Positions 6,593 through 37,046 of a DNA stretch of 64,000 nt are shown in pieces. This DNA comes from Nitrosopumilaceae archaeon (GTDB lineage: Archaea; Thermoproteota; Nitrososphaeria; Nitrososphaerales; Nitrosopumilaceae), in NCBI GenBank assembly GCA_965203465.1, contig CBDBCR010000003.1, forward strand, positions 736,001 through 800,000. The letters are read 5' to 3'. Each line of letters starts with the position of its first letter. Position 1 is the first letter of the stretch. A program made the translations under genes and the position numbers. The notes beneath the pieces were generated by a model, which made no database searches, was not told the origin of the DNA, and worked only from the letters and a program-made list of their open reading frames with translations.

Positions 6593-7529
6593 ATGGGTCA
6601 TATGGGCAAACGCGGCGGAAAACTTACGGCGGCCAGTCTGTTTTCCGGAGCCGGCGGACTGGATCTGGGCTTCGAGCAGTCTGGAGTCCGCGTCGTCGTG
6701 GCCAACGATTCGTGGGACATGGCGCTGGAGACATACAAGACGAACAGGGACGGAAAGACCGAGGTGCTCGTGGGCGCGCTGGAAAAACACGCGAACGAGA
6801 TCGCCTGCTTGGCGCAGAACGCCGACATCGTGTTCGGCGGCCCCCCGTGCCAGGACTTCAGCCAGGCCGGATGGAGGACCGGGGACGGGCGCAGGGCCGA
6901 CCTCACTTCATCGTTCGTCAAACTGGCGCTGAAAATACGACCCGAGTGGGTCGTCATGGAGAACGTCAACACCATCATGTCGATCGGCAGGCGCCACGCA
7001 GAGTACGCGATCAAGGCGCTGGGCAGGGCCGGATACACGGTCACTACGAGGGTGCTCGACGCGGCCGACTTCGGGGCTCCCCAGTACCGCAAGCGCTTCT
7101 TCCTCATAGCCCGAAAGGGCTCGCACAACATGCTCGGGCTCGCCGAGTCCATAGAGAGAGAGAGAGAGAGCGCCGCTGACCGTCCGCCGGTACTATCCAG
7201 CCATAAGCCGCGGAGCCCGGGGCACTGAGTTCTACTACAGGCATCCGTGGAGTTTCGAGCGCCGCGCCATATTCAGCGTGGACGAGCCCAGCCCCACGAT
7301 ACGCGGCGTGAACCGGCCGATCCCCCCGAGCTACAAGATACACCGCAACGACGCGACGGACGACCTCGGCCTGGTCAGGCCGCTCACCACCGAAGAGCGC
7401 GGCATATTGCAGACGTTCCCGAAAAAATACGAATTCGTCGGGAACAAGACGGAGCGGGAGCAGCAGATAGGCAATTCGGTTCCGCCGGTCCTCGCCAAGG
7501 CGGTGGCCAGCGCGATCGTGAGGATGTGA
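6593..7529 (+). CDS. C5-cytosine DNA methyltransferase (M.HindV-like), frameshifted at an (AG)9 tract
   Basis: SLFSGAGG, GGPPCQDFS, MENV, PQYRKRFF in ORF 6593-7228. The target-recognition region (YYRHPW..IFSVDEPSPTIRGVNRPIP) and motif X (QQIGNSVPP) continue in another frame after the tract. Confidence 0.92.
7153..7170 (+). repeat. (AG)9 simple sequence repeat inside the C5-MTase
   Basis: Counted directly. (AG)7 or (AG)10 restores the reading frame. Confidence 0.95.
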
Positions 7530-7530
7530 C

Positions 7531-8514
7531 ATGGCCGACGAAAGCCCTGAACTGTTCGGCATACACCGATCCAACGTAGAGTCCATGATGAGCAAGAACA
7601 TATTCACCACGTTCTTTCCCGTGGCGACCGCGCTGTACTTGTCGAGCAAGGGGCGGCCGGTCAAATACCTCCGCCTCCGCGACGGCGATTTGGACATCGA
7701 CGAGATTCTGTTCGAGCGGGCGATAGGCGTGGATTCCGGCGACCTGCGGCGCGTCGAATGGAACAGTGAGATACACCCGGACGCATTCGCCAGCAGCCCG
7801 AACGCGCCTCCGATGGACATGGTGCCCACCTTGGACGGGGAGCAAAAGCTGGAATTCGAGGTCAAACTAACCGTGGTGCCTACGTTCAACAAGAACAAGA
7901 CTACCGAGCTGATAGTGCGTCAAAACACCGAATTCTCGCTGGCCGAGAGGATGGCGTACAGGCACCACGACTTGGTTGACGTGCGGCCGATAACGAACGA
8001 CACGCTGCGCGGCGCGATTCGCGACGAGAGCCGACAGCTACCCTTCATACTCCACGGATTGTGGAAGACGGAAGGCACCAGCATGGTTCTGGACGAGATC
8101 AACGCCACCGACGCCTATTTCATAAGCGACTTTGCGTATCTGAAAATACTGCTGGACAAGTACGACCGGCACCCGCGCGAATCATCCCGCGTAGGCAAAG
8201 TGGTGCGGCTGATACGCAGCTGGATAGGGTGTTATCTAGAGAGCGGAAGCATGCGGTACAAGGAGGACAGGGCCAACGTGGAGCACCTGAAGGTCACGAT
8301 TTATCCCACCGAACACCAGAAAGACCTGCAAAGAAGCTACGAAAACCTGCGCCTGTCGGTGAAAGACCTGTGGAACATAGTCCCCGACGATTCCATACGG
8401 CGAATGTCCCCGGAAAGGAGGCTCGACGCGGCCATGTTCGTCAACTGGATGATACAGACGATACTTAAGCGGGAAGAGTCGGCGGAAGCAAGGGACGGCC
8501 GAAGTTTCACGTAA
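7531..8514 (+). CDS. Type II restriction endonuclease, HindVP-like
   Basis: Starts 1 bp after the MTase stop. FEVKLTVVP and C-terminal MSPERRLDAA motifs resemble the HindVP family. Confidence 0.75.
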   Translation: MADESPELFGIHRSNVESMMSKNIFTTFFPVATALYLSSKGRPVKYLRLRDGDLDIDEILFERAIGVDSGDLRRVEWNSEIHPDAFASSPNAPPMDMVPTLDGEQKLEFEVKLTVVPTFNKNKTTELIVRQNTEFSLAERMAYRHHDLVDVRPITNDTLRGAIRDESRQLPFILHGLWKTEGTSMVLDEINATDAYFISDFAYLKILLDKYDRHPRESSRVGKVVRLIRSWIGCYLESGSMRYKEDRANVEHLKVTIYPTEHQKDLQRSYENLRLSVKDLWNIVPDDSIRRMSPERRLDAAMFVNWMIQTILKREESAEARDGRSFT

Positions 8515-8609
8515 AGCCGCCCGTCAACGAGGCCACGCGGCGAATATCACCAGTCCTATGGCGGCCACGACCGCCGCGGCGGCCAACTCTTTCGCGTGTT
8601 CGAGCGGGA

Positions 8610-8975
8610 TCATTCCGCCTTCTCAATGGCGGCGTAGTCTACCTCGTTTATCTTGACGATCCCGCTCGCGAGGTACGCCCCGTAATGGTACGGGTTCTTT
8701 ATGATCGACAGCGCGTCCAGCAGGCCGCCTATGCTCACGGGCTTTTTCATCACGCGGACTTTGCGCAGCGGTATGTGCTCGTCTTTGACTTGGCCGGCCG
8801 CGACCGCCGTCGCTATGAACGCGCGGCCTTCCTTGCCTCCGCGGTATACGGTGAACCTATCCCCGTCCCGGATATGCTTGACGTGCGGTGTCCGTGGGTT
8901 CACCGGCCACGAGGCCCCGCGCAGCCGCTTGTCTATCTCCGCGTCCGTGTCGTTCACGACCAGTATGTAGTCCAC
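8610..8975 (-). CDS. EVE-domain (PUA-like) protein
   Basis: W..KHIRDGDRFTVY..FIATAVAAG..KPVSI..LSII..GIVKINEVDY pattern. Confidence 0.75.
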   Translation of the reverse strand: MDYILVVNDTDAEIDKRLRGASWPVNPRTPHVKHIRDGDRFTVYRGGKEGRAFIATAVAAGQVKDEHIPLRKVRVMKKPVSIGGLLDALSIIKNPYHYGAYLASGIVKINEVDYAAIEKAE

Positions 8976-9283
8976 TGGCGGCGGACGGCAACCGAGTCGG
9001 TTTAAGCTTTGGGCTCAGATCGCGTGCCTAGCCGGGGCTACCCCACGAATTGGAAACAGTGCCAATCGGTTCGGCGCCCCGGAATCCGGCCCCTAGGCAC
9101 GGCCTCCGGGGGTTTTGGACAGCCGGGGAGCCCGGCGCGGGGCCTAGCCCGCCCGAGCGCCCGAGCCGAGCCGATCGCCCACGGGCCCCCGGCTCACTCC
9201 ACCAGCTCTGCCCCGTACAGGCGGGCTAGGTCGCGCCTCCTGGTGCGGAACTTGGTCCGGCGGTTCCCGATCCCGCCGGCCTC

Positions 9284-11077: not shown

Positions 11078-12907
11078 TCAGAGCGTGGCCTGCGCGTGAC
11101 GCGGCTCCCTCTTCTGCATGGCCACCCGGGTGGTGTCCATGATGGACATTACCTTGGGGCGCACGCCTGCAAAGTACTCCCCGACGGTGTAGATTTGGAC
11201 CTTGGGGTACGTCCCGTACTCGGTATGGTACACCCCGGCCTTGGCCGCCGCCTCGTACATGCCCCGGGACGGCTTTTCGAGGCAGATGAAGATCCCGAAC
11301 GCCGCCTTGCCCTCCATCGTCCCGGCCAGCTCCCTGACCATGGACGGATGCAGGTTTTTGCCCCCTTTTACGGACACCACGACCGTCTCGTACTTTGGGT
11401 TGCCGTCCGGGTCCCGGACGAGGATCTGGCCGCTGCCGTCTACGCCCCCGTCGCCGGTCTGCTTTTGGTTGGGGTGCACGTTCGGTATCAGACTCACGGC
11501 CCACGTCTCGAACTGGAACTTGTTCTGCCGGGCCAGCATCCGCGCCGATTCCGGCGACTTTGGTATCCCGCGTATGTCAGGCCGTATCTTGAACTTGTCC
11601 GACAGCCTTTTCGCGACGAGGTTTACGGCCAGGTGCGTTATGTCGATCCCCACCCACGACCGGTTCAGCCTCTCGGCTTCCATTACCGTCGTACCGCACC
11701 CGCAGAACGGGTCGAGCACCGTGTCGTCCTCGTCCGAGGACGCGCGGATGATGCGCTCTAGCAGCGCCTCGGGCTTTTGCGTGGGGTACCCGACGCGCTC
11801 GTTTCCCTGGGCCGGCAGCACGTCGTCCCAAAAGTCCCCGACGTTCTCCCCCGCGTAGTCGTCCTCGTACACCTTGCGGATCAGTTTCCTGGAGCCGTCC
11901 GGCCTCTCGACGATCTCAAAGTTCCCCTTGCGGTACTCTTCCTCCAGCTTCTCCCGGGACAGCCGCCAGCCCGAGGGGTGCGGGTTGGAAAAGCCCTTCC
12001 ACGTATAGCACAGGTTGGGCCGCGCCCCCATCCCCGGCGTGCTCCAGATGTGCGAAGAGTCGTCCATCCACCGGCGCCCGTCGGGATCCTGCTTGCTGAA
12101 TTTTTTGCGCCTTTTTTCCTCGGTCAGCGGCGCCTTGGGGGGGTTGAACTTGGCGCGCCTCGCGTCCTTTGCGTAGAACAGGATGGTGTCGCGGTTCCGC
12201 CCGAACTTTTTTGCCGCGTGCTGGCTGCCTTTTTGGCCGGAGGTCGCCCGCTTCCACGTTATTTCGTTCCTGTAGTTTTTCGGGCCGAACACGGCGTCCA
12301 TCACGACTTTGAGGTAGTGGCTGGCCGTGGGGTCGCAGTGCACGTACACGCTGCCGCTCTTTTTGAGGACGCGGTGCAGTTCTAGCAACCGTATGGCCAT
12401 CGCGACCACGTACGCGAACAGGTCGTTCTTGCCCACCGCCTGCCTCAGGCCCAGGACCACCCCGCCTATGCGCGTCCCTGCCAGGTAGTCCAGCGTGGCC
12501 TCGGATTCGGCCGTCCACGACCACGTGTCTTGGAACGCGAGTATCTGGGCGCCGGACTTTTTGCCGTCCTTGTTTTTGAAGATCATGTTGTAGTCGGCGT
12601 TGGAGTTGAACGGCGGATCGAGATATATGAGGTCGACCGACTCGTCTCCGACGTGCTGCCTCAGTACGTCAAGGTTGTCGCCGTAGTACAGTAGTCTCGA
12701 CCTGGCGTCTCGACCTGGCGTCTCGACCTGGCGTCTCGACCTGGCGTCTCGACCTGGCGTCTCGACCTGGCGTCTCGACCTGGCGTCTCGACCTGGCGTC
12801 TCGACCTGGCGTCTCGACCGCTGTGATCGGTCAGCCCGTTCTTTGGCAAGTGCCAGAGGCCGTTTTCCGGACTCCGCGCCTACCCGCCGTCCGAGCCTGC
12901 CCTCCAA
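11078..12907 (-). CDS. Beta-class N6/N4 DNA methyltransferase fused to a C-terminal Mrr-like endonuclease domain
   Basis: YYGDNL, LIYLDPPFNS, GYPTQKPEALLERII, VLDPFCGCGTT. C-terminal FQFETWAV..GDGGVDG..VSVKGG. Start is uncertain (TTG 12907 chosen; the ORF is open to 13075). Confidence 0.9.
   Translation of the reverse strand: MEGRLGRRVGAESGKRPLALAKERADRSQRSRRQVETPGRDARSRRQVETPGRDARSRRQVETPGRDARSRLLYYGDNLDVLRQHVGDESVDLIYLDPPFNSNADYNMIFKNKDGKKSGAQILAFQDTWSWTAESEATLDYLAGTRIGGVVLGLRQAVGKNDLFAYVVAMAIRLLELHRVLKKSGSVYVHCDPTASHYLKVVMDAVFGPKNYRNEITWKRATSGQKGSQHAAKKFGRNRDTILFYAKDARRAKFNPPKAPLTEEKRRKKFSKQDPDGRRWMDDSSHIWSTPGMGARPNLCYTWKGFSNPHPSGWRLSREKLEEEYRKGNFEIVERPDGSRKLIRKVYEDDYAGENVGDFWDDVLPAQGNERVGYPTQKPEALLERIIRASSDEDDTVLDPFCGCGTTVMEAERLNRSWVGIDITHLAVNLVAKRLSDKFKIRPDIRGIPKSPESARMLARQNKFQFETWAVSLIPNVHPNQKQTGDGGVDGSGQILVRDPDGNPKYETVVVSVKGGKNLHPSMVRELAGTMEGKAAFGIFICLEKPSRGMYEAAAKAGVYHTEYGTYPKVQIYTVGEYFAGVRPKVMSIMDTTRVAMQKREPRHAQATL
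12694..12819 (+). repeat. 13-bp tandem repeat (GTCTCGACCTGGC), 9 copies plus 9 bp, at the 5' end of the MTase
   Basis: Counted directly. Perfect copies abut the first conserved motif (LLYYGDNL). Confidence 0.97.
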
Positions 12908-13397: not shown

Positions 13398-13398
13398 G

Positions 13399-14767: not shown

Positions 14768-15670
14768 TCAGGCCGGGGGCCAGTCCAGGGCGTACGCGCC
14801 CACATCTATGTCGTTCTGCTTGCCGCACTTTAGGCGGCTTTTCCGGTCGTCTACGTAAATGTCCACCGTGTTTTTCCCCTTGTTGCGCAGTATCAGCGGG
14901 CCCAGAAACCCGGAGGGGAACAGGAAGGGCCTCGTCCTCTGCAGCAGCACGTACAGGTTCGGATCCCGCTCCTCAAACATCCTCATCAGGTCGTCCCTGA
15001 CGGTTATCTGCCAGCCCGAGGGCTTTTCGCTGGCGGACACCGAATAGACGGTCCGCCCGTCCGGACACTTTACCCACCTGCCTTTCTTGTAGCCGGCAAA
15101 GCCGTTCGAGCCGAGCAGCGCCATGGTTTCCTCGTCGGTTAGCGCCCTGCTCTGCTGCGCCTCCTCGGGGACCTGCTCCAGGTACCCGAACTTGTGCAGG
15201 ATGAAGAACATCTCCTCGCGGAACCGGCTTATGGTTTCTTTTTGCTGCAGGTTGGGGCGCGAGCCGCTGCCCGACGCGTTGACCGGCCTGTACTTTCCGA
15301 ACCCCTGGAACGCCCGGATCAGCTCGGCTTCCAGGCTTTTGCGCACGGTGCTGTCGCTGAACCTGGTGGTCTGGACCGGGCGCCCGTCCCAGATCACCGC
15401 GACCTTGTCGAAGGCGTGAACTCCCCCCTTTACGGGCGGGCCCCCCTTGCGGTGCTGCGATATGCGGGACTTTGCGTTTTCCGTCTCCCCGATATACACC
15501 GTCTCGGCCTCGTCGTTTACCAAAAGATACAGGCAGGCTATCTCGTCGACGTTCTCGTCCTTGAGGTGGATCTCGGCCACGTCCCTGTCCGACACCGTCA
15601 TGACGAGGCAGTCCCCTATCACGCGCCACAGGGAATCGGAGCAGTGCTCGTTGTACGTGTATCTTTTCAA
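14768..15670 (-). CDS. GIY-YIG-family endonuclease, probable REase partner of the adjacent MTase
   Basis: CLYLLV..VYIGETENAKSRISQH..LEAELI..N motifs. TTG start overlaps the MTase stop (TTGA). Confidence 0.8.
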   Translation of the reverse strand: MKRYTYNEHCSDSLWRVIGDCLVMTVSDRDVAEIHLKDENVDEIACLYLLVNDEAETVYIGETENAKSRISQHRKGGPPVKGGVHAFDKVAVIWDGRPVQTTRFSDSTVRKSLEAELIRAFQGFGKYRPVNASGSGSRPNLQQKETISRFREEMFFILHKFGYLEQVPEEAQQSRALTDEETMALLGSNGFAGYKKGRWVKCPDGRTVYSVSASEKPSGWQITVRDDLMRMFEERDPNLYVLLQRTRPFLFPSGFLGPLILRNKGKNTVDIYVDDRKSRLKCGKQNDIDVGAYALDWPPA

Positions 15671-16486
15671 CCCGCCGCCCCCCCGCGCAGCCTGGCCTGC
15701 ACGCCACTCACCCGCCTCCTCGCTATCCGGGCGTACTTTGGGGACACGTCGCAACCTATGAAATTCCTGCCCCTGCTCTTTGCCATCTTGCACGTGGTGC
15801 CCGAGCCGCACATCGGATCCAAGACCAGGTCGCCTTCGTCGGTCCACGACAGTATGTGCTCCTCCGCGAGCCGCTCGGGGAACACGGCCGGGTGCTCGAA
15901 TGCGTACCTGTCGCTGGTGGTACCGCCGAGGCCGACCGCGTACTCCCAGATGTTGGTCCGCGTCTTGTATTCGTTGAGCCGCGCCTTCACCTTTCGGTTG
16001 AGCGCGTCGGGCCCCTTGTTTGCGACCACGCCCTCGACGCCGCTGCGCGCGGTCTTTTCGGTCAGCGGGTTGAACGTGCGCGGCTTTCCCTTCGAGAGGA
16101 CCAGCATGAACTCGTAGCAGTTGGTGTACGCGTTGCTGCGCATGAACGGGGTGTTCCTTTTTCTGTATATCATGACGTCGTGCACGGCGAAGCCGATCTT
16201 TTGGAAAAAGAGGGCCTGGCGGAAGCTCGTGAGGCTCCGGCCCCCGTTAATCCTGTCCCCTATCACCCATACGACGATCCCCCCCCCCCCGGGTCACGTC
16301 GTAGAGGGCCCGCGCCGTGCCTTCAAAGTCGAATTCGTACCCGTCGTAGTTGCGCAGGTCGTCGTACGGCGGGGAGGTCACGGTGAGGTCGACGGAGCCG
16401 GGCCTGACCCGCTCGCGCATGAACCTGACGCAGTCGCCCGTGTAGATCCTGTTCTGCGCGGCGTACCGGGCCGCCGTGTCGGCCAT
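15667..16486 (-). CDS. Beta-class N4/N6 DNA methyltransferase, frameshifted at a G12 tract
   Basis: IYTGDC and LTVTSPPYD before the tract; HPAVFPERLAE and VLDPMCGSGTT after it in another frame. Confidence 0.92.
16279..16290 (-). repeat. G12 homopolymer on the coding strand of the MTase
   Basis: C12 on the + strand. G11 or G14 restores ..DVTRGGGIVVWVIGD.. Confidence 0.95.
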
Positions 16487-16704: not shown

Positions 16705-17763
16705 CTATGACATGCGGTTACGGGAACCAAGTCGGGGGACGTACCGGGGACCAGGATCTGTTATGTCTTTGTACACAATTCCCACATATTTCATGGCCCG
16801 CTGTACGTCAGATTCTGTTTCTATGTAAGAACAATAGTTACCCTTACCATAATGGCGCACATTAGAGATATCTAATACGAAATCATTTGGTGGCCAGATG
16901 CGTTTTGTGGTTGCATACACGATTAGGAGCCTGTGTTTGCGGAGAATTACAGAGCAGACCTGTGTGCTATCTTTGAGACGGAATGACGCCCATTTCCTTC
17001 TCTGTACATGTTCGAGTCCAAAATTGACATGCAAGAGACGTTTCAGATCATTGTACAGAGAACGGGTTTGCGGTGTGATTTTGGTGCCTCTGTAGTCACC
17101 TGCAATCCAGGCATCTTCAGAAAGGGAGTCGGAGACGACGGGGCGAGGTTTTGTTCGACGACGCGAGCTAACCGGGGCTCGTTCTTTGCCTGCCACGTTG
17201 ACTTTCGATATTGTCAAGTGGTTCGGGTACCTGCGGATCTCGCAGAGTTCCGTGACGCGCTGACCCACCGAGTTGGACGCTTCGATTTGTTTTTTGGAGA
17301 ATTTCGGCCTTACAAAGATCAAGTACGTTTTTTCCCATCGCACAGATCTCTCTTTTACGACCTTGTTCCGCTTTTCGCTCAGTGCATTACGGCACCTTTC
17401 TTTGTTTTGTTGCAACCTATCGTAGTAGATGGAGACTTGATCGGATATGTCCCTGTTGTCGGCATTCTTGTATTCCATTATAACGAACGCCTTGTCCTTG
17501 TCATCAAAAGCGAGCGCGTCCAGCGTTACATTTCCTATTGGAAACTCACTCTTGATTAGATCCAACCAAGGGAAAAACGTGCCAAAATTTTCTACCACCG
17601 TGCGTTTAATCTCATACTCGCGTTTGAAGCCAACGTGTTCGAGCTCTTTCAAGCCGCCCCTGCCGATCTCAAATATCCTCAACGCTCGCGACTGGAGGCA
17701 GGTGGGTATTTGTGTTTTAGTCGTGACGCCACGCCTGTGTCTAGGCACGACGGGCATAGTCAC
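16705..17763 (-). CDS. NucS/PD-(D/E)XK-like nuclease with a C-terminal DUF5655-like domain
   Basis: E..I....N..SEF....LDALAFD....FVIMEYK....DQ...Y; C-terminal DISNVRHYGKGN. True start is probably downstream (~17682). Confidence 0.65.
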   Translation of the reverse strand: MTMPVVPRHRRGVTTKTQIPTCLQSRALRIFEIGRGGLKELEHVGFKREYEIKRTVVENFGTFFPWLDLIKSEFPIGNVTLDALAFDDKDKAFVIMEYKNADNRDISDQVSIYYDRLQQNKERCRNALSEKRNKVVKERSVRWEKTYLIFVRPKFSKKQIEASNSVGQRVTELCEIRRYPNHLTISKVNVAGKERAPVSSRRRTKPRPVVSDSLSEDAWIAGDYRGTKITPQTRSLYNDLKRLLHVNFGLEHVQRRKWASFRLKDSTQVCSVILRKHRLLIVYATTKRIWPPNDFVLDISNVRHYGKGNYCSYIETESDVQRAMKYVGIVYKDITDPGPRYVPRLGSRNRMS

Positions 17764-17827: not shown

Positions 17828-18271
17828 GTCGACACTGGTGCGAATTCTGGTGTTGCTGGGGGGGGCCGTACCTGGCCTCCACGCATGGATTGAACGATGA
17901 TGTAAAATGGCAGTAGTGGAAAGCGGCGGTTCGTTAGATGGCCGGGTTCGCTACAAGAAGATTCGTAGCCGCAACTTGACAGGCGAAAGGCGTACGCAGA
18001 TCTGCCTTGGCGTTACGGAGGCTGGAGTTTGGGAACCGCGATCGCCCGGCTGCATCCCGCCGCCCTATTAGTCAGATCCGTGGTGGTGCTCACGTAAGAC
18101 TGGATTTGCGGCGGGGCGCCGCGCTCCGCAAATCCGGAGTCGGCGCGCCCTGCCAAGTTCCAGCTTTGCAGGATCGCGCCGTTCCGCCGCCGGGCGTACC
18201 CCGTATTCGGGGGCGCGCTGCAATGATCCCCGGCGTCGGAATTTCGCCGCTGTCCGCCTCGCTGTGAGCGC

Positions 18272-18610: not shown

Positions 18611-18612
18611 GT

Positions 18613-19711: not shown

Positions 19712-19765
19712 CTAGAACAGTCGATCTAGAACAGTCGATCTAGAACAGTCGATACCGAACAGTCG
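19712..19765 (+). repeat. 14-bp tandem repeat (CTAGAACAGTCGAT), 3 copies plus a degenerate copy
   Basis: Counted directly. About 65 bp upstream of the type IIG-like gene. Confidence 0.9.
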
Positions 19766-19828: not shown

Positions 19829-22240
19829 GTGGGCCCCCTGACGGGCCGAGCCGAGCCCGCGGGCGCCGCGGCCCGCAGGCTCCTCAACCCGCCCTCGAAA
19901 AAAGAGGCCGACCGCCGGGCGTACATCAGGGCCTGGCTGGATTCCATCGGCGTGCCCGAATCTTCGATACGGGCAGAGTACCACACGAAGGCGGGCCCCA
20001 TAGATCTCTACCTCACGAACAGGCGGGTCATCATCGAAGTGAAGCAGAGCGGCGCCTCGACGGCGGCCCGGACCGGCCCGGCACCGGATCCAAGACGAAC
20101 GAGACGGCCTTTGAGCAGCTGGACAGGTACGTGCGGGCAGAGCGCCTGAGGGAGCGCCTGTACCTAGAGGACGGCATAACCGACTCGACGTGGCTTGGCG
20201 CCGTGACGGACGGCGCGGTATGGTACGTCTGGGAGTGGGATCCGCAGCCGTCGGAGATCGAGGGCGCGCCGCGGCCCGTGCGGATGTGGCAGGGGCAGGG
20301 GCTCAATTCGGGCAACCTGGGCAGGCTCGCGGGCCTGTTCGACAGGGAGTCGGTGGGCAGGGAATGGGCCACCCCGGACATGTCGCACGCGTTCTCGGAC
20401 ATACTGGAGAGCATGCACGAGCGCTACGGCCAGCTGAGGGGAACCGGGTCCGTCAGGACGCAGCGCGGCCTGTGGCTGGAGCAGCTGAAGGGCGGCGGGA
20501 ACTCGCCGGAGGGCGAGGAGGGCAGGCTATTCGTGCTCCATTCGCTGCTCATACTGATCTCCAAGCTGATTTCGTCGGAGACCGATCCGCGCGAGGGTTT
20601 CGTGCAGTGGGTCCCGGACTCCGAGATAGGCAGGCTGGCCGAGATTATATGCTCGGAAATAATAGACGACGGGTTCATAGAGGAGCAGATACGCAAGTTC
20701 GAGTCGGGCGGGGCTGTCTCGGGGGTGCTCGATCCGGCGTGCGGGTCCGGCACGTTCCTGTACCACGCCGCCAGGCGCGTCATGGAGTCCGGGCCGGTCC
20801 GCGCGTCGTACTTGGGCAGGGAAAAGATCGCCGCCCTGGTCTGCCGGATGATCCGCGGGATGGACATACACCCGGTGGCCGTGGAGATGGCCAAAGCGAA
20901 CATGCGCAGGCTGCTCCCGCGGGCCAGCCACGGAGACGTCATCGTGTACCAGGGGGACGCCCTGCTGACCCCGCGCCCGGAAGCCGCGCTCTTCGGCTAC
21001 TCCGGCAGCGCCCTCCCGCTCAGCTCGCCCAAGGGCCTGCACCTGGTGCTCCCCGGGTGGTTCGTGCTATCGGACAGCGGGGACATATCGAGGTTCGTAG
21101 AATCCGCGTGCGACGACACGGCCATGCCCCCCTCGCTCGGCGTGGACGTGCGGGGCTACGATCGGGGGCAGCTGGCCTGCGCGCACGATCAGTTGCGGAA
21201 AATAGTCCGGGAAGAGTCCGACGGGGTCTGGTTCTGGTACATACTCAACCAGGCCGGCCCCATGAGGCTACGCGGCACGATAGGCAGGACGGTGTCCAAC
21301 CCGCCGTGGGTCTCGTACGACAAGATCCAAGAGGCGCGCAGAAAGGAGGAGATCAGGAGGATGGCCGAAGAGCGCCGCCTGTGGGTGGGCGGCAAGAACA
21401 ACAGGTTCGACCTGGCCGCGCTCTTCGTGGACAGGTGCCCCGAGCTGTACGAAACGGCCGGGGCCAAGTCCGCGTGGGTGCTCCCCCGAAGCGCTATGCG
21501 CGCCGACACGTGGAAGGGCCTGCGCGACAAGGCCGGCAAAAAGATGTCCGGCTCGTGGGATTTGGGGAACCTGCCGTTCAGCACCAATTCGTGCGTCGTG
21601 TTTTTCGGGCACAAGACCAGGGACAGAAAACTCTCGAGGACCGGCGGAAAACTGCGGGCCAGCGATTCTTGGGAAGCGGTTTCCGGAAAGACGGAGTGGT
21701 CAAAGGCCGGCGCGTCCTTTGCCGAAAGGTGCTCCGAATGGACGGACGGGAGGGGCAGGAATCTCGCCAGAAAGGGCGCCTCGATAATACCGCACTGCCT
21801 GGTGTGGGCAGGCTCCGTGACGGCGAGCGGGGGCACGGCGCGCGTGAGGACCAAGCCGGCCCGGTGGCCCCCGTGGAGGGATCTGGGGGTGATGGATGGC
21901 GACGTGCCCGAATCGTGGATACGCGACTGCGCGTCCGCCGGCGACCTCGCGCCGTACTCGGTGCCGGGCGTGACGCGGTGCGTGCTGCCCATCGACGGCG
22001 ACGGCTGGGACGCGGGCAGAGGCCGCTTCAGGTTCTGGAGGGACGCGCGGGATCAGTACGCAGCGCACAGGGGCGCGGGCGCCCACACGCCGAAAACGCT
22101 GGAGGCCCGGCTGGACTTCAACGGGGCGATTTTCAAGCAGCTGGGGCGCACCGGCGAGCACGTCGCCTACAACAAGGCCGGCAGCACGCTGTACGCGGCG
22201 AGAATCCCGAACAAGAGGATAATACACGACACCCTGTACT
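19829..22240 (+). pseudogene. Type IIG-like fused REase-N6 MTase: frameshifted, apparently internally deleted, 3'-truncated by an IS
   Basis: GPIDLY..IIEVK nuclease motif, frameshift at ~20053, VLDPACGSGTFL, VSNPPW. The usual GxYYTP block is missing. The reading frame runs into the IS end at 22241. Confidence 0.82.
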
Positions 22241-22268
22241 GGAAGCATGTAATCTCCGTCAGTTGTGC

Positions 22269-24217: not shown

Positions 24218-27200
24218 CTACCGTTTCTTCCGTTTGGCGATGGTATCCGAGAGGCGCTCGACGACCTCGTCCTTTCTGGATCCAAGACCCAGCACGTCAA
24301 ACACCGCCCCGTCCAGCCTGTCTTGATCCAGCGTCTTGCAGTACGACTTCCACGCCTTGGCCATTTGGTTCCTGCCCGCCGCGTCCAAGACCGCCATGTC
24401 GGGCACCTGCATCATCGCATAGTCTTCGACCTGCATCTTCAACGCGCCCCCTCCCATGGGGTGACCCACGACTTCCATGTGAAGCGAAAACATCGACGAC
24501 CGGATGTATGCGAGAAGAGGGTGCAGGTGCGTGCTGTCGCGGGCCTCGAAACAGACCCAGGTATCCAGCGCGCCGAACCTGGTGGTGCCGACTCCGTCTC
24601 CGTTTTCGACCACCTTGTGCCTGTCGTTGCTGATGGCGCTCAAAAACGCATCCGGCGTCCCCCGCGTGTTCATGTAAAACCAGAACCGCTTTTTCCTGAG
24701 AGTCGGCGATTCTGCCGGTATCTTGCCAGACCCGTCGGGGAACTTTCTGGTCTCGCCTTCCCTGATGTACCTGATCAGTCCTTTTGCGTCCTTGTCGCGC
24801 AGGAGATCGGCCATTGGCGAAGTCACTGCCAGAATGTACTTGCCCGCGTCGCTGTTGCGCACTTTTCCGCTTATCGTCGACTTGGGCAGCAGGACGGGAT
24901 GGAGGAACTTTTCGTGTATGCCGTACTCTTCAATTGTGTCGGCGCCAATCACAAAGTAGCTGTTAAATTTGGTAGATACGCCGCTGAACAACTTGCCCGT
25001 CTTGCCGAGCGCGGACATTTTCACCGCGGGTTCGGGTACGGCATCCATGAAGTGTACTGCCCACTTTTCGTCCCCGAACTCGTTCTGGCCCTTTTTCTTG
25101 TATGCAAGGTTTGAAAACAGGCCTCCCTCGTTCACGGCCGCGTATCTGACGACGTTGTTTCTGCTCCTCCCCTTCGTCAGTATCGTGATCACCGTCTTTA
25201 CGTCTATGTTCTTGAACACGTTGTAGTCCGGCTTTAGCATGACGTTGATGTCGCAGTTGTCCGCGAGCATTCTCTTGAGGGACTTGCCGTACGAGAAGCT
25301 CATCCAGCTGTCGCTCACGATGAACCCCAGCCTCCCGCCTGCCTTTAGCCAGTTCAGCGAATGGTAGTAAAAGTACGACGACTTGTCGGCCTTCTTGTCT
25401 ACGAGTCCCGCGCCTTTCAGCGTGTTGTTTCTGGGCAGCTGCATGCAGTCCTTGTCGGAGAGCCGCTCCTGCCTCACGTACGGCGGGTTTCCGATTACGA
25501 CATCAAAGCCGGGCATGACTCCCACCACGTGGTCCTTGTTGGCGCAGACCTGGGGAAAGCCGCGCTCGCCGGCCCAGTCGAACGGACGCTCGCCCCCGGC
25601 GCTGCGCGTCAGGATGGTGTTCCCCCGCCGTATGTTCTTCGACAGATCCGGAAGCTTTCTTCTGCTTCCCGCGATTTTGAAGAACATCGCAATCCTCGAT
25701 ATTTCGACGGACTGCTCGTTTATGTCGATGCCGAATATGCATTCCTCGATTATTTTTCTGGCCACGCTCTGTTCAAACGCCATCCCGAACGTCTCGTTTT
25801 TTGACGCGGCCCCCTTCTTGCCGCCCAATTCGACCTCGTACGCGCCCGCGTCTTTCTTCTGCTCCAGTATCTCGTTGTGCACGTCGAGCAACACGTCGAC
25901 GGCCTTCACCAAAAACGCGCCGGAGCCGCAAGCCGGATCGAGTATCCTTATCGACCTCAGTCTTTCCTCGAGTGCGCCCAATTCTCCGTCGTACTGCTCT
26001 ATGAGATCGCGGGTGCTCGTGGTGTCGGGTTTTCTCGCCAGGTACGGGATTATGGTCTGCCTGCACACATAGTCCGTGACGTACGGAGGCGTGTAGTACA
26101 CACCCATCTTCTTCCTCTCGGACGCGTCCGCATCCATGAGCCTGTCAAGATCGTCGAGCGACTGTTCGAATATGTGGCCGAGTATGTTTACGGTCAAATC
26201 TGACTCGAAATCATACCGCAGCATCGAAAGCACGCCGGTTATGATCGGGCTGAGGTTCTTTTCAAGTACGTCGATCTGATCTTTGGCGTACTTGAGTTCC
26301 TTTTCCGCGGTGTTCGGAAAGTACTCCTTGGGCCGCATGTCCAGGAACTGTGCTTTGACAGGCCACGACTTTGTGAACAGGCCTCCGTTGAACGCGAAAA
26401 CGTCCGGGTTTTTGTGTCCCTCCGCGAACCACCTGAACACCTTGTCCATGGCGTTGAAGACCACGCTGGTCGAGCCGTCGATCTTTTTGTTCCCGATGCT
26501 TTTCTTGATCTGATCGTACAGCAGGCGTCTGCCTACATAATCGTTGGATTCTGCGAACATCACGAAGATCAGGCGGTTCAAGAATGACTGCGCCTGGTCT
26601 ACGGCGGTGCTTCGGTCCACGCAACCCTCGAACTCTTTTACGAGCATGAGGCGCGTTCGGTGGAATATGTCGTAGAATTCCTCCTCGAGATCCTTCTCGA
26701 TCTCGTCCGCCGTCGCCCGGGTCGCTTCCAGCGAATTTTCGCCGATCATGTGCGCCTTTGAGAATATCCAGACGAACTCCTTCAGCCGGTATTCGCTGTC
26801 CCGTATGGACGAGAATTCGAACTCGTAATGCTGGCACCGGCCGACATCGTACTTGAACAGGATGAATTTGTCATAGTCGGTCACGATCCCGTACTTTGGT
26901 ATGATCTCCGACATGTACCACCACAGCTGGCCGACGGCTCCGTTCTTGTTCTGTGGCGTAGGCTTCCACAGGTCCGTGCCTTGTCCCTTGGCTTCTATGC
27001 AGACGGCTGTTTTTCCGTCCGGACCGGCAATCTGGAACTCGATGTCGTTCTGCTGGAACTTTACGTCGTCCGTCAGCGAATAACCCAGCACGCCCTCGAG
27101 TATGATTTTCTGGAAATTCGTGTAGTTCAACTCCTCCTTTTTCAACTTGCCCCTCTCGAGCATGTCCAGCCACTTGTCTTTGGCCTTCTTGGCGGCCCTG

Positions 27201-27277
27201 TCCAACGCGACGTTTTCAGACAGTTTTCTGATCGCCCTGCGATTCAGCAGCGTGTTTTGCGACGCCACCGCGATCAC
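24218..27277 (-). CDS. Type IIG (Eco57I-like) fused restriction-modification enzyme
   Basis: CIEAKG, ILGHIFEQSL, RKKMGVYYTP, ILDPACGSGAFL, DVVIGNPPYVRQE, C-terminal specificity region; intact, 1019 aa. Confidence 0.92.
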   Translation of the reverse strand: MIAVASQNTLLNRRAIRKLSENVALDRAAKKAKDKWLDMLERGKLKKEELNYTNFQKIILEGVLGYSLTDDVKFQQNDIEFQIAGPDGKTAVCIEAKGQGTDLWKPTPQNKNGAVGQLWWYMSEIIPKYGIVTDYDKFILFKYDVGRCQHYEFEFSSIRDSEYRLKEFVWIFSKAHMIGENSLEATRATADEIEKDLEEEFYDIFHRTRLMLVKEFEGCVDRSTAVDQAQSFLNRLIFVMFAESNDYVGRRLLYDQIKKSIGNKKIDGSTSVVFNAMDKVFRWFAEGHKNPDVFAFNGGLFTKSWPVKAQFLDMRPKEYFPNTAEKELKYAKDQIDVLEKNLSPIITGVLSMLRYDFESDLTVNILGHIFEQSLDDLDRLMDADASERKKMGVYYTPPYVTDYVCRQTIIPYLARKPDTTSTRDLIEQYDGELGALEERLRSIRILDPACGSGAFLVKAVDVLLDVHNEILEQKKDAGAYEVELGGKKGAASKNETFGMAFEQSVARKIIEECIFGIDINEQSVEISRIAMFFKIAGSRRKLPDLSKNIRRGNTILTRSAGGERPFDWAGERGFPQVCANKDHVVGVMPGFDVVIGNPPYVRQERLSDKDCMQLPRNNTLKGAGLVDKKADKSSYFYYHSLNWLKAGGRLGFIVSDSWMSFSYGKSLKRMLADNCDINVMLKPDYNVFKNIDVKTVITILTKGRSRNNVVRYAAVNEGGLFSNLAYKKKGQNEFGDEKWAVHFMDAVPEPAVKMSALGKTGKLFSGVSTKFNSYFVIGADTIEEYGIHEKFLHPVLLPKSTISGKVRNSDAGKYILAVTSPMADLLRDKDAKGLIRYIREGETRKFPDGSGKIPAESPTLRKKRFWFYMNTRGTPDAFLSAISNDRHKVVENGDGVGTTRFGALDTWVCFEARDSTHLHPLLAYIRSSMFSLHMEVVGHPMGGGALKMQVEDYAMMQVPDMAVLDAAGRNQMAKAWKSYCKTLDQDRLDGAVFDVLGLGSRKDEVVERLSDTIAKRKKR

Positions 27278-27334: not shown

Positions 27335-28243
27335 TTACGGTGTTCGCGTTGATTTAGCCAACGGTTCCGCGGCGCGGCCTGTTCCGCGGCGCGGCCTGTT
27401 CCGCGGCGCGGCCTGTTCCGCGGCGCGGCCTGTTCCGCGGCGCGGCCTGTTCCGCGGCGCGGCCTGTTCCGCGGCGCGGCCTGTTCCGCGGCGCGGCCTG
27501 TTCCGCGGCGCGGCCTGTTCCGCGGCGCGGCCTGTTCCGCGGCGCGGCCTGTTCCGCGGCGCGGCCTGTTCCGCGGCGCGGCCTGTTCCGCGGCGCGGCC
27601 TGTTCCGCGGCGCGGCCTGTTCCGCGGCGCGGCCTGTTCCGCGGCGCGGCCTGTTCCGCGGCGCGGCCTGTTCCGCGGCGCGGCCTGTTCCGCGGCGCGG
27701 CCTGTTCCGCGGCGCGGCCTGTTCCGCGGCGCGGCCTGTTCCGCGGCGCGGCCTGTTCCGCGGCGCGGCCTGTTCCGCGGCGCGGCCTGTTCCGCGGCGC
27801 GGCCTGTTCCGCGGCGCGGCCTGTTCCGCGGCGCGGCCTGTTCCGCGGCGCGGCCTGTTCCGCGGCGCGGCCTGTTCCGCGGCGCGGCCTGTTCCGCGGC
27901 GCGGCCTGTTCCGCGGCGCGGCCTGTTCCGCGGCGCGGCCTGTTCCGCGGCGCGGCCTTAGGCCTGACGACGCCGCCCCGTCAGCACGCAATAGAAACGT
28001 CGCGGCTTGACGCGGTTGTTGATTCATGCCAACTGACTTCATCTCTGAGCGCAGGGCTTTGGCCCTGCCGCGCAGCGCCCGCGCGCGCTCTTCAAGATCG
28101 CGTATTTCCGCATTGAGCGCTTTCCGGCGAGTCTCCGGACGCCCTTGCCTGCCGCAGCAAATTTCTTTCTGCCTGCCGTCTTTCGTTGTCAGGTAGTATG
28201 CGTATCGCAGTCCCCCCCTGGCGCGTACCACGTGCCTGCCCAT
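27335..28243 (-). CDS. Small basic protein (YxY..GxxKE..G beta-hairpin DNA-binding-like domain plus coiled coil) whose 3' end runs through the 17-mer array
   Basis: MGRHVVRARGGLRYAYYLTTKDGRQKEICCGR..EIRDLEERARAL resembles SSV1 integrase N-terminal/DUF6788-like domains. TATA-like TTTTTAA upstream. Confidence 0.5.
   Translation of the reverse strand: MGRHVVRARGGLRYAYYLTTKDGRQKEICCGRQGRPETRRKALNAEIRDLEERARALRGRAKALRSEMKSVGMNQQPRQAATFLLRADGAASSGLRPRRGTGRAAEQAAPRNRPRRGTGRAAEQAAPRNRPRRGTGRAAEQAAPRNRPRRGTGRAAEQAAPRNRPRRGTGRAAEQAAPRNRPRRGTGRAAEQAAPRNRPRRGTGRAAEQAAPRNRPRRGTGRAAEQAAPRNRPRRGTGRAAEQAAPRNRPRRGTGRAAEQAAPRNRPRRGTGRAAEQAAPRNRPRRGTGRAAEPLAKSTRTP
27364..27958 (+). repeat. 17-bp perfect tandem repeat (GTTCCGCGGCGCGGCCT), 35 copies
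   Basis: 595 bp = 35 x 17, with no spacers or variants seen; 86 bp upstream of the type IIG start. Confidence 0.97.
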
Positions 28244-33957: not shown

Positions 33958-35220
33958 CTAATCACCCAGCAGGCACTGCACATGCATCTCCCCTATGTCC
34001 ATCTCGCTTTCCAAGAACGACTGCACCTCGCTCTCCTCGGATGGGCGCGTGATGAGCGAAGAGCCCGAATCGCCCCTGCTTATCAGCAGGAGTCGGTCTA
34101 TTCCCGATTGCCTCACGATTTCGGGGCTGTGCGTTGTGATGATGATCTGTTTGCTGGACGATGCGTCCTTCATCATGTCCACCATACCCGAAAGCAATGC
34201 AGGGTGCACGCTCCTTTCTGGTTCTTCGATCACGGCGAGCTGCGCGTCTTCGAAATACAGCGCCACGACCAGCGCTACCGCGTTGGTAGTGCCGTCCGAT
34301 ACCAAAGCTGCCGGCAGATGCTTGCCTTTGGAATAACTCTCCTCCGTCATAAACACCAAGGACTTGTCCACCGTGCTTTTGACGCCAAGGGACTTTACGA
34401 ACGGGAGTATGTCGGATGTCAAGTTGTTGAATTGTCTTCTTTTTTCAGCGTTTGACAGTATATCCCTCAGCACTAGCGGAAGGTTGGAACCGTCGGTCTC
34501 CAGTCCGAGCCTGCCCCCTATGGCGGAGGGCCGTTTTGCTAGTTTTGGGGCAAAGTCGTAGATTTCAAGCTGGCTGAAGAAATAGCCTACCCACGGGAAC
34601 ATGATATCTACGACTATGTGCGATTCCAAAATGGACTTGTTCTTGGCGGTCTTTGATCCGTATCCGTACACTGTCCTGTATAGATTCAGTTGTTTTTTGG
34701 ACACGATGTCGATGGGAAAGTCGGGCTCGAAGAACAGCTTGCCGTTTTCCGACTTTATGTTCAGTATGCCGTCTATGCGCCCTTTCTTGTTGGTGCCGTC
34801 TATGCGCCCTTTCTTGTTGGTGCCGGTCATGTAAAAACGCCACGCGTCGGACAGGATCTTGAACCCCGACCTCTGGCCCATCTCTATTTCGAAACTCCAT
34901 TTTACGTGCGTGTTGTGGAGCACGTATTGTTGGTTGGACAGATTTCCGGGGAGCGGTATTTCCGGAAAGTCTATTTCCAGCTCGATCGACATGCGGTTGT
35001 CGCCGTTGAAATTCCGCACGTATTCGATCCCTCCCTGGATTGCCAGCGCGTCGGCCAGTCCCCCGCGCATGTCTTTGAGAAACTGAAAGATCTGCCCAAA
35101 GTTGGACTTGCCCGAAGCGTTAGAGCCCACTAGCACATTGAATTCTTTGAACTCAACGTCCAAATCTACAAAGCTCTTGAAATTGTGCACCTTCAGCCGC
35201 TTCATGAACGCCTCGCGCAT
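33958..35220 (-). CDS. ABC/AAA_21-type ATPase, copy 1
   Basis: HNFKSF, GSNASGKSN (Walker A), VSDGT signature, IEEPE (Walker B), ITTHSP. Confidence 0.92.
   Translation of the reverse strand: MREAFMKRLKVHNFKSFVDLDVEFKEFNVLVGSNASGKSNFGQIFQFLKDMRGGLADALAIQGGIEYVRNFNGDNRMSIELEIDFPEIPLPGNLSNQQYVLHNTHVKWSFEIEMGQRSGFKILSDAWRFYMTGTNKKGRIDGTNKKGRIDGILNIKSENGKLFFEPDFPIDIVSKKQLNLYRTVYGYGSKTAKNKSILESHIVVDIMFPWVGYFFSQLEIYDFAPKLAKRPSAIGGRLGLETDGSNLPLVLRDILSNAEKRRQFNNLTSDILPFVKSLGVKSTVDKSLVFMTEESYSKGKHLPAALVSDGTTNAVALVVALYFEDAQLAVIEEPERSVHPALLSGMVDMMKDASSSKQIIITTHSPEIVRQSGIDRLLLISRGDSGSSLITRPSEESEVQSFLESEMDIGEMHVQCLLGD
34767..34825. repeat. 27-bp in-frame tandem duplication in the ATPase
   Basis: Encodes GTNKKGRID twice. 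Confidence 0.92.
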
Positions 35221-35587
35221 GAGGTGCCGGCCCGTCACTACAATTAATATCTATACCGCGATCCCGGATTCCGGCAAATCCTGGTGAGCCGGGGCCCGGT
35301 GCGGAGGTACGGCCCCGTCGATCGGGCGTTTTCACGCCGGCTGCGGCCGGATCCGGCCCCGGGCCCCAAGCGCCCGAATCCGCAGCTCTCCGCGGGGGAG
35401 TTCGCCCCCACGGTTTAAGTGAGGCGCGCAGAAAAGGCCGGCAGTGAAGGTCAAAGTAAACGTCAACGTCCTCCCCTTCGGGCACTACAGGACGGAGGAG
35501 GCGCAGTCCGAATCGACCGTCGAGATTGCCCCGACCCCCATAATAAAAGACTACACGTCGGGTTCTGTGTAATCAGCGAGACCCGGC

Positions 35588-36709
35588 CTAGCCCGCGTGG
35601 AGCCGGTGCAGGGCCGCGTTCTGGATCAGCGTCTTCCAGCGATCGGGCCCGTCTATGTCTATCAAGGCCGCGTCCGAGGGCGTCCGGCCGCCCAAGCCGC
35701 CGTGCTTTTTGACGCAGTTGTAGTGGGCCTGGAACCCCGGTATCAGCGGCGTGTGGAACTTCTTGAGGCCCCGGAAATTCACCTCGCGCTCCCGCACCGT
35801 CCCGTTGAGCCGTTCCATCTTGTTGTTGTTCATCTCTTTCCGCAGGTGGATGTACCGCCAGTGCTGGGTATCGGGGCCGAACACCCTGATGCTCGACTTC
35901 ATGTAGTTGGGCAGCCCATCGGTGACGAAGTGGGCCGGCGCCTTACCCAGCTTCCGCTTGGTGGCCTCCAGCAGGTTGTCCGCGTCGTGCTGGAACTTGG
36001 TCTCGGCCATCTCGGCGGCCAGCCAGAACCGCGTGTCGTCCTCCATGGAGCCGAACAGGTACTTTAGTTCGCCGGCTATCTTGATCCAGACCTCGTCGGC
36101 CCGGGCCATGGCCCGGTCGGAGGTGCGCGGCACCACGTCGTGCAGGTATTCGGATACGGACTTTGAATACTCGGCTACCCAGTTGTATATGGTCTTGTGT
36201 GATATTTTGACGCCCTCGGTCTCGAACTCGTCCGCTATATCCCGGACGCTCATGCCCTTGTAATACGTCCGGACGGCCCGGGTTATCGTCTTGGGGCGAA
36301 AGTGCTTCTTTTCGAACCCCGGGTTGTCTGTAAACCTGCGGCCGCAGTCGCCGCACTTGAGCAACTGCACCGGGCCGGCCTTGGTCTTGCGCGTGCCCTT
36401 CTTGGCTACGTTGCCCGAGTCGCAGAACTTGCACACTTGGCGGCCGGCCCTTTCCATGATCCGGAACGGCGCCCGCTTGAAGAGTTGGTTGCGGCAAAGC
36501 GCCCGCAACACAACCTTGATGTGCTTGCAGTCGGCCCCGCGGGTCCGGTGATCCGGGCACTCGCAGACCAGCCCCGAGCCGGTGCGCTTCACCTCGTACC
36601 TCTTGTCCGGGTCCGTCTGCGAGCGGACGCTGAACGTGTCCGGATCTGACTGGCCGGCCGCGCCGGCCTGCTTGAGCATCTCGACTGCGCGGGCGGTGCG
36701 GGCGTTCAT
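35588..36709 (-). CDS. IS6-like DDE transposase with N-terminal SWIM finger and Zn ribbon, intact
   Basis: CECPD..CKH, CKFC..CGDC, HTH (ISHKTIYNW), ARADEVW, FVTDGLPNY, NNNKMERLNG. Confidence 0.93.
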   Translation of the reverse strand: MNARTARAVEMLKQAGAAGQSDPDTFSVRSQTDPDKRYEVKRTGSGLVCECPDHRTRGADCKHIKVVLRALCRNQLFKRAPFRIMERAGRQVCKFCDSGNVAKKGTRKTKAGPVQLLKCGDCGRRFTDNPGFEKKHFRPKTITRAVRTYYKGMSVRDIADEFETEGVKISHKTIYNWVAEYSKSVSEYLHDVVPRTSDRAMARADEVWIKIAGELKYLFGSMEDDTRFWLAAEMAETKFQHDADNLLEATKRKLGKAPAHFVTDGLPNYMKSSIRVFGPDTQHWRYIHLRKEMNNNKMERLNGTVREREVNFRGLKKFHTPLIPGFQAHYNCVKKHGGLGGRTPSDAALIDIDGPDRWKTLIQNAALHRLHAG

Positions 36710-36721
36710 GCCTGTAGTCTA

Positions 36722-36770
36722 AGGCTAGTCTATTAAAACCTTTAGGGCGACGTATAGACTATTATAGCCT
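36722..36770. promoter_or_regulatory. Divergent promoter with inverted-repeat operator candidate
   Basis: TAGTCTAT (36726-33) and ATAGACTA (36754-61) flank TATTAAAA; outer AGGCTA/TAGCCT. Confidence 0.45.
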
Positions 36771-36788
36771 GCTCTGGAGGAGGGCGGC

Positions 36789-37046
36789 ATGGACAAGACG
36801 TCGCTGGTACAGGTCAACAAGAGCGACTCGCTGCGCACGACGGTGCCCGCGAGCATCGTGAAACTGCTCGATCTGCGCCAGGGCGATCGTGTAGAGTGGG
36901 ACGTGCTGCCGGACGGAAACAGGTTCGCCGTAAAGATCGAATTCGTAAAACCAAAGGACGCGCGAACCAAAGGACGCGCGAACCAAAGGACGCGCGAACC
37001 AAAACCGGTCAGGGCGCCGCGTTCGTCACGGCCGCGGCAATTCTGA
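36789..37046 (+). CDS. AbrB/MazE/SpoVT-like DNA-binding protein
   Basis: SLRTTVPASIVKLLDLRQGDRVEW; GGAGG Shine-Dalgarno upstream. Confidence 0.88.
   Translation: MDKTSLVQVNKSDSLRTTVPASIVKLLDLRQGDRVEWDVLPDGNRFAVKIEFVKPKDARTKGRANQRTREPKPVRAPRSSRPRQF
36949..37003 (+). repeat. 16-bp tandem repeat (AACCAAAGGACGCGCG), 3 copies plus 7 bp, in the abrB 3' end
   Basis: Counted directly. Confidence 0.93.

Follow-up and report, generated by a model that had tools for sequence, protein, structure and literature searches.

All six loci that bear a DNA methylase gene in a 64,000-nucleotide (nt) stretch of a Nitrosopumilaceae archaeon (GenBank assembly GCA_965203465.1, contig CBDBCR010000003.1, positions 736,001 to 800,000; hereafter the window) carry a tandem or homopolymeric repeat. 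We propose that these restriction-modification (R-M) genes are probably contingency loci, each with a hypermutable repeat placed where the gain or loss of a unit would change expression. The placement of the repeats, their excess over expectation, their recurrence in different forms at orthologous sites and the differences in their length between strains together give the signature of such loci.

Repeats at the R-M genes of the window

We located the repeats with Tandem Repeats Finder (TRF) and a pattern search for G runs, and gene identities were taken from Pfam and PADLOC. The original prediction, made from the letters of the window, had placed six repeats at the R-M loci; all of them were found, five as 100% perfect repeats (Table 1). 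Their unit lengths are 2, 13, 1, 14, 17 and 16 nt and, as had been stated, none is a multiple of 3.

Two of the repeats lie within methylase genes that were correctly described as being out of frame. The C5 cytosine methylase gene breaks at (AG)9 and the N4/N6 methylase gene at G12, and in both a change in the number of units restores the frame. Indeed, one AG unit more or two fewer, (AG)10 or (AG)7, would unite the two parts of the C5 gene; in the N4/N6 gene the N-part now terminates 9 codons past the tract, and G11 or G14 would be in frame with the remaining domain. The C-part of the C5 methylase is 91% identical to the full-length database protein P0002 (manual count), and an AG run longer than that of the window is present in the C5 homolog P0001 (90% identity).

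The window was also compared with assembled Logan contigs of four sequencing runs: X10, which is the possible source of the window, X1, which comes from a different study, X12 and X13. Such contigs drop rare variants, and the 17-mer array lies outside the compared stretch. In the C5 gene, all 8 of the X12 differences in the N-part, and 8 of the 10 in the C-part, fall at third codon positions of each part's own frame (manual count on 40 of 489 rows), suggesting that both halves have been under purifying selection. Length variation between strains, for which the original prediction had asked, was seen at two homopolymers, since one X12 contig has C13 where the window has C12 and the G8 tract at 17858 is G7 in X1 and X12, and it was seen in the longer AG run of P0001, but (AG)9 itself is the same in X10 and X1. 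A protein scan of JGI metagenomes with the GIY-YIG nuclease and a pattern scan across the G12 tract returned no strain variants.

Both intact and broken alleles of the N4/N6 methylase are present in the protein database. As read from the protein, P0127 (82% identity, 271 amino acids (aa)) is unbroken, with four glycine codons in the place of the tract, and six clusters (P0122-P0126 and P0128; 81-97% identity, 196-207 aa) hold the C-part only. Truncated alleles of both the C5 and the N4/N6 methylases recur in several database clusters, on contigs of up to 197 kb; more distant N4/N6 relatives have no tract. With these queries, no close orthologs of the two genes were found in four other genomes of the same genus.

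At the third locus, a methylase fused to an Mrr-like nuclease domain, the 13-mer array precedes the conserved body of the protein. In 74 homologous loci the alignment begins at the first residues of this body, most matches starting from query residue 1. Since ATG, GTG and TTG are all absent between the array and the conserved N-terminal motif, translation must begin upstream and traverse the array. Two candidate TTG start codons are available, one at 12905-12907, in frame through the present 9.7 copies, and one at 12847-12849, out of frame (manual arithmetic); which of the two is used would decide whether this gene is ON or OFF. Other repeats occupy the same site in relatives. In the ortholog from genome G003, of the same genus (48% identity), an ATG is followed by 18 nt and then by C11 right before the conserved N-terminus, one base out of frame, and glycine runs are found there in the homologs P0245 (72% identity) and P0257 (50%). 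Among 73 bacterial homolog loci scanned, only one, from a Dehalococcoidia metagenome-assembled genome (L056), has a long non-triplet array at this site, composed of 7-mers (x17 plus x3, at 1329-1470) just 5' of the gene start. No public contig spans the 13-mer array of the window, which is uninformative either way given k-mer assembly. The protein P0243 (555 aa, 100% identical, with 1.7 copies of the 13-mer), a candidate proof of copy-number change, was downgraded, as its 22 nt are the shortest path for an assembler with k=21.

The three remaining repeats are found upstream of Type IIG-like genes. The intact enzyme at 24218-27277 has the Type IIG/MmeI-like architecture, with nuclease, helicase-spacer and gamma-class methylase in one chain. 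The 17-mer array in front of it and the 16-mer array of the last locus are, as predicted, upstream of R-M genes, but both lie inside the 3' ends of small upstream ORFs (open reading frames). One alternative frame of the small ORF through the 17-mer would end on a TGA overlapping GTG 27277, which might permit translational coupling; nothing comparable was observed at the 16-mer. For the last gene the start had been placed at 37080, and we consider GTG 37122 likelier. As to the 14-mer upstream of 19829, the three predicted copies are perfect, but a diverged fourth copy accompanies them and the gene is also frameshifted near 20050, away from the repeat, with its N-terminal nuclease motif in one frame and the rest in another. 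In an X1 contig, one extra G just behind 20050 joins the two frames, which gives an intact form of the gene. The X1 and X12 contigs end inside the 14-mer array, which is again uninformative for contigs assembled from k-mers. Pyrrolysine or other recoding was ruled out as the cause of the gene breaks, which are frame changes and not single in-frame stops.

Table 1. Positions of the R-M genes, repeats and associated features in the window
Feature	Positions	Strand	Details
C5 cytosine DNA methylase, N-part	6593-7228	+	From ATG 6593 to premature TGA 7226-7228; Pfam DNA_methylase, E 9.8e-43, profile positions 3-168 of 324
(AG)9 in C5 methylase	7153-7170	+	TRF 100% matches; separates the N-part frame from the C-part frame
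C5 methylase, C-part, motifs IX-X	7155-7529	+	Open in the other frame; matches PF00145 positions 230-323
HindVP-like restriction nuclease	7531-8514	+	Pfam RE_HindVP, E 8.3e-17; ATG 2 nt past the methylase stop
N6_N4 methylase fused to Mrr-like nuclease domain, conserved body	11078-12693	-	Pfam N6_N4_Mtase, E 6.2e-43, and NA-iREase1
13-mer x9.7 array	12694-12819	-	TRF 100%; between candidate start codons and conserved N-terminus
GIY-YIG nuclease gene downstream of split methylase	14768-15670	-	Pfam GIY-YIG, E 8.5e-05; in-frame TTG overlaps the methylase stop codon
N4/N6 DNA methylase, two frames	15667-16486	-	N-part from ATG 16486 to stop 16247; C-part 16293-15667, Pfam N6_N4_Mtase, E 2.2e-32
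G12 on coding strand (C12 on +)	16279-16290	-	At the frame break of the N4/N6 methylase
G8 tract	17858-17865		About 95 nt upstream of PDC-S18 candidate defence gene 16705-17763 (-)
14-mer array, 3 perfect copies and a diverged fourth	19712-19765	+	TRF 3.9 copies, 92%; 64 nt upstream of GTG 19829
Type IIG-like nuclease-methylase gene	19829-22272	+	Methylase hits sub-threshold
MmeI/Eco57I-type single-chain R-M enzyme, intact	24218-27277	-	Pfam Eco57I, E 8e-31; N6_Mtase, MmeI_Mtase, MmeI_hel
17-mer x35.0 array	27364-27958	-	TRF 100%; 86 nt upstream of GTG 27277; ends 48 nt before an A/T-rich box
Small ORF, ATG 28243	27335-28243	-	Reads through the 17-mer array in its 3' part; stop TAA 27335-27337; no Pfam family
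AbrB/MazE-fold small gene	36789-37046	+	Pfam MazE_antitoxin, E 1.1e-06; 16-mer array in its 3' tail
16-mer x3.4 array	36949-37003	+	TRF 100%; 118 nt upstream of GTG 37122
Type IIG-like enzyme, nuclease-like N-terminus	37122-39896	+	Pfam Eco57I, E 8.1e-4 (sub-threshold); PADLOC REase_MTase_IIG and MTase_II weak
G11 on coding strand	54376-54386	-	8 nt upstream of the start of the 2328-aa LVIVD/Ig-like surface-protein gene 47381-54367

Repeats in the rest of the genome and in relatives

The window is part of a genome of 2.26 Mb and 65% G+C in four contigs (C1 to C4 below), in a family whose genomes are mostly smaller (1.5-1.8 Mb). It contains archaeal amoA (E 1.9e-115), in agreement with the archaeal origin that had been predicted. 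The stretch itself was recovered in sponge and marine metagenome runs and in runs labelled with three organisms, from six studies in all, and one of the N4/N6 methylase homologs in the protein database is annotated as coming from Cenarchaeum symbiosum A. We read the host as a sponge-associated ammonia-oxidising archaeon. Sponge-associated Thaumarchaeota have been described as having an elevated G+C content and as enriched in restriction enzymes and methylases (PMC7848895).

A scan of the whole genome for perfect repeats gave 105 rows, among which were 59 homopolymers of at least 9 nt and 27 dinucleotide repeats of 6 units or more, 26 of these being GC/CG and the remaining one (AG)9. We took 27 methylase ORFs from Pfam family searches and the other genes from a crude codon-usage ORF picker, which failed to call at least one real gene (mod, at C1:966302). 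A non-triplet repeat lies within the ORF or up to 250 nt upstream of it for 14 of the 27 methylase ORFs and for 92 of 1854 other genes (odds ratio 20.6, Fisher p 1.5e-11). An equal frequency of repeats throughout the genome, which the original prediction had named as grounds for its refutation, was not observed: repeats are common, but they are concentrated at R-M genes and at giant surface-protein genes. Perfect non-triplet repeats with a unit of at least 5 nt number nine in the genome and four of them fall within this 30 kb; such rarity together with such clustering excludes chance.

The longer arrays are even more specific in their location. Seven perfect arrays with a unit of 10-17 nt and at least three copies exist in the genome, all seven at R-M genes and four of them in the window; of the other three, two precede Type ISP paralogs and one a further Type IIG gene. 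Both Type ISP paralogs combine Mrr_cat_2, ResIII, ISP_coupler and N6_Mtase in one chain (Pfam) and carry a related 10-mer unit, in x3.1 and x5 copies, respectively. In three arrays the end is 47-48 nt short of an A/T-rich box; three 10-mer arrays start 30-90 nt past a TATA-like box and hence probably sit in the leader.

Three further methylase genes outside the window are split exactly at a homopolymer, G11, G14 or G12, where a change of one unit shifts the frame. Two of them are Type III mod genes with a ResIII gene next to them: in the mod-res pairs at C1:966302 and C1:337282, an N6_N4_Mtase protein of about 840 aa (E 3.6e-32) is followed, with a 4-nt overlap, by a ResIII protein of about 950 aa (E 3.7e-10 and 2.3e-10).

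The second class of genes concerned is that of the giant surface proteins; R-M and surface-protein genes are the classes that vary in bacterial contingency loci. Runs of G or C that reach 10 nt or more occur 49 times in the genome, whereas five order-5 Markov simulations gave 3-6; for 12 nt or more the genome has 37 and every simulation 0. Sense-strand poly-G of 10-18 nt was observed between -200 and +60 of the start in 14 of 15 genes of at least 2000 aa and in 5 of 1159 genes of less than 300 aa (examples are C1:648377, C3:85262, C3:421842 and C4:5436; Table 1 gives one in the window). According to Pfam, the poly-G-bearing genes include giant Ig-like, LVIVD and EPTP proteins, beta-helix proteins and DndB. 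Fourteen of the 49 tracts start 0-9 nt past a TATA-like hexamer, and in two cases an ATG stands 4 nt beyond the tract, an arrangement that would fit a leaderless transcript. When paralogous poly-G pairs with conserved flanks were compared, 8 of 12 differed in tract length.

Relatives have repeats of the same kind, and the trait is common to several genera of the family. In a mod-like family of about 850 aa, six of nine copies from eight genomes have a 5' repeat, namely G14, C26, C11, C9, C11 and a 10-mer x11; the last (L120:3501-3610, from genome G003) is about 120 nt upstream of its gene. Runs of at least 12 G were found in 8 of the 41 genomes searched, comprising all five of the genus, that of the window included, and three from other genera; they are absent from the other 33, many of which are far lower in G+C. 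In a genome of a second genus (G016) a TATA-like box is followed by a tract of 17-19 nt and then by a long ORF.

Some further repeats were observed in the course of the census. Two Type IIG paralogs of about 1290 aa have G16 (C1:61487) and G9 (C1:361748) 27-84 nt before the stop, where a frameshift would alter the C-terminal tail only. A four-copy element (C1:677922, C3:339177, C3:921576 and C3:978423) contains perfect 15-mer arrays of x33, x20, x4 and x9.9, which adjoin 23-mer x3 and approximately 54-mer repeats, and one copy is beside another cluster of methylase and poly-G at C1:677-693 kb. An element of about 90 nt, conserved in four copies (C1:313680, C1:689437, C1:812532 and C3:87241; 85-94% identical), ends each time in G12 or G13, and a second family, of three copies, ends in G10, G11 or G14. 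G14 is also present 75 nt upstream of the DndB gene (C3:833922; Pfam E 4.1e-103), which belongs to a system associated with DNA phosphorothioation. The poly-G strand is strongly biased by contig: nearly all tracts read G, except on C3, where they read C, and this follows the orientation of the genes behind. Finally, a methylase locus in another genus of the family contains (GTCT)x10 (L007:2687, genome G005).

Switching, decay, fixed elements or artefact

In the mechanism that we propose, slipped-strand mispairing at replication would alter tract length at a useful rate. The (AG)n, poly-G and 13-mer repeats would decide whether the methylase, and with it the coupled nuclease gene that follows, is translated or not. 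In the single-chain Type IIG and Type ISP enzymes, the 10-17-mer arrays next to the promoter would adjust transcription or translation, and poly-G just past the TATA box or start codon would control nearly all giant surface-protein genes. Bacterial promoter-spacing repeats likewise adjoin core promoter elements, where their length would alter the geometry. In archaea, however, the transcript start is fixed relative to the TATA box, so that a tract between TATA box and start codon would alter the length of the leader or the position of the start codon and not polymerase binding; poly-G at this place would be an archaeal-specific means of varying leader length or the position of a leaderless start. 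If the whole genome is considered, a 'phasome' of sponge-symbiotic ammonia-oxidising archaea may be envisaged, in which about 50 tracts would stochastically switch nearly every giant surface protein and about half of the R-M methylases (Types II, IIG, ISP and III), giving combinatorial surface and methylome states in the host; we advance this wider proposal only tentatively.

Several observations weigh against contingency loci. All scorable intragenic tracts are OFF, five of five in the genome as well as the G003 ortholog. Among 31 C5 proteins read, three have a pure AG-encoded run (P0001, 90% identity, P0003 and P0004, both 60%) and every one of these is truncated; in full-length relatives the run is interrupted (P0002, 91%) or missing, and no in-frame allele with a pure tract was found. 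The length of (AG)9 did not change between X10 and X1, and what inactivates the 19829 gene is the loss of one nucleotide from a short G run, a deletion common to X10 and X13, and not its 14-mer array. To switch off a separate Type II methylase while the nuclease ORF is intact would be risky for the cell. Three of the 10-mer arrays lie 3' of their TATA-like box, where a gain or loss of units leaves the reading frame unaffected, and the role of the 14-, 16- and 17-mer arrays, which we infer from geometry, may be that of regulator binding sites instead of switches. At 11 loci of more distant methylase homologs in relatives, neither a G/C tract nor an array was found (0 of 11; L088 has T9). Lastly, long homopolymer lengths in the assembly may be off by one and, the comparison being made from contigs only, switching within a population is something that we infer.

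The OFF state of the intragenic tracts and the truncation of the pure-AG C5 alleles fit decay as well as they fit switching. Under decay, the loci would be a graveyard of horizontally acquired R-M genes, in which the repeats were the first breaking points in an archaeon without strong mismatch repair and no reversibility was selected. The break of the 19829 gene at a non-repeat site, the constant (AG)9 and the IS66 and DDE transposase fragments that flank the loci (Pfam) all speak in its favour, and this explanation, although unlikely in our opinion, keeps real weight. It leaves unexplained the very existence of long perfect tracts (37 G/C runs of at least 12 nt against none simulated) and the fact that orthologs have repeats of differing types at one and the same 5' position. 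In addition, the out-of-frame C-part of the C5 gene retains its third-position pattern and has no stops, an in-frame N4/N6 allele that appears to bear the tract exists (P0127), and nuclease ORFs that are intact behind broken methylases represent the wrong order for safe decay.

The repeats could also be fixed regulatory elements, the arrays acting as operator or iteron sites, for example for the adjacent AbrB-like protein, and poly-G acting as a constant promoter or leader element or as a place where RNA polymerase slips and so yields a constant small amount of in-frame product from an OFF gene. Transcriptional slippage on long homopolymers is known in insect endosymbionts. The spacing of the arrays from A/T-rich or TATA-like boxes, the related 10-mer unit of the two Type ISP paralogs, the location of the 16-mer within the gene of an AbrB/MazE-fold protein and the 14 tracts immediately past a TATA-like hexamer would agree with this. 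Nevertheless, 35 identical copies of the 17-mer imply recent expansion or homogenisation and not a conserved operator, copy number differs between the Type ISP paralogs, tract lengths vary among paralogs and strains, and an intragenic (AG)9 cannot serve as an operator; we hold this explanation to be improbable. As for an artefact, that is, repeat lengths miscalled by sequencing or assembly in genes that are really intact, long G runs are error-prone on several platforms, and the 1.7 copies in P0243, a minimal collapse for a k=21 assembler, may themselves be one. But independent contigs of other studies reproduce (AG)9 and its flanks exactly, an 18-nt dinucleotide tract is atypical as an error site, and truncated alleles recur in the database clusters. 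Two ORFs of the genome, 9057 and 7439 aa long, also run without interruption, which means that indel errors are rare in general, and artefact is in our view very improbable.

Contingency loci remain the reading that we prefer. The original prediction went further, to a combinatorial switchboard of methylation and restriction states. It is supported in part, by the association of repeats with R-M genes, by the relatives, by the restoration of frames and by the intact and broken N4/N6 alleles, but not for the 19829 gene, which is off through a non-repeat deletion.

Known systems and genomic surroundings

Multi-locus phase variation driven by repeats is regarded as a hallmark of host-adapted bacteria. 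The closest known systems are the phasevarions, based on Type III mod genes, of Haemophilus, Neisseria, Helicobacter and Moraxella. They share with the present loci a repeat in or at the 5' end of the methylase gene, non-triplet units, different repeat types at one site across alleles and several genes per genome; here, two mod-res pairs have poly-G in mod. The present case differs in its archaeal host, in the involvement of Type II, IIG and ISP genes too, in the unusual 10-17 nt units and 35-copy array, and in being known from sequence alone. Campylobacter jejuni offers another likeness, with dozens of G/C tracts of at least 10 nt, above expectation, in or just upstream of surface-structure and R-M genes. 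Unlike C. jejuni, the present genome has 65% G+C, many of its tracts stand outside ORFs, after an archaeal TATA box and before the start codon, and the main targets are giant genes of 2000-9000 aa.

A survey of REBASE found repeats in 662 of 3805 mod genes, with at most four of them in one genome (PMC5909438). Neither this Type III survey nor the corresponding Type I survey uses the word 'archaea' in its main text. The text consulted of the study that described R-M enrichment in sponge Thaumarchaeota, the same kind of organism as here, contains neither 'frameshift' nor 'pseudogene' and does not discuss repeats (PMC7848895). A 2010 survey of homopolymeric tracts covered 18 archaeal genomes and reported short poly-A and poly-T tracts (PMC2831843), a 2025 review leaves the distribution of phase variation across archaea as an open question for future work (PMC11868660), and a 2025 preprint states, via cited references, that contingency loci 'have been described in ... 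archaea'. In the literature searched, we found no description of repeat-driven phase variation in ammonia-oxidising archaea, Cenarchaeum or sponge Thaumarchaeota.

If our proposal is true, the strategy would extend to Archaea and to a mutualistic animal symbiont, not a pathogen, and the form that the mechanism has taken at TATA-box promoters would become apparent. It would also provide a testable model for an uncultured sponge symbiont that faces the heavy phage exposure of a filter-feeding host as well as host recognition. In such metagenome-assembled genomes, 'pseudogenes' may be switched-off genes.

The R-M stretch of the window is a defence island, in which PDC-S18 and HEC-01A-type ATPase genes are interspersed among the R-M loci (PADLOC). 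One of these genes, an ATPase gene of HEC-01A/AAA_21 type at 33958-35238, contains a perfect 27-mer x2.2 (34767-34825), the unit of which is in frame. Elsewhere in the genome, a CRISPR-like array was observed at C4:45183-48674, with a repeat of about 36 nt and a period of 71-72 nt; one of its spacer regions contains C11.

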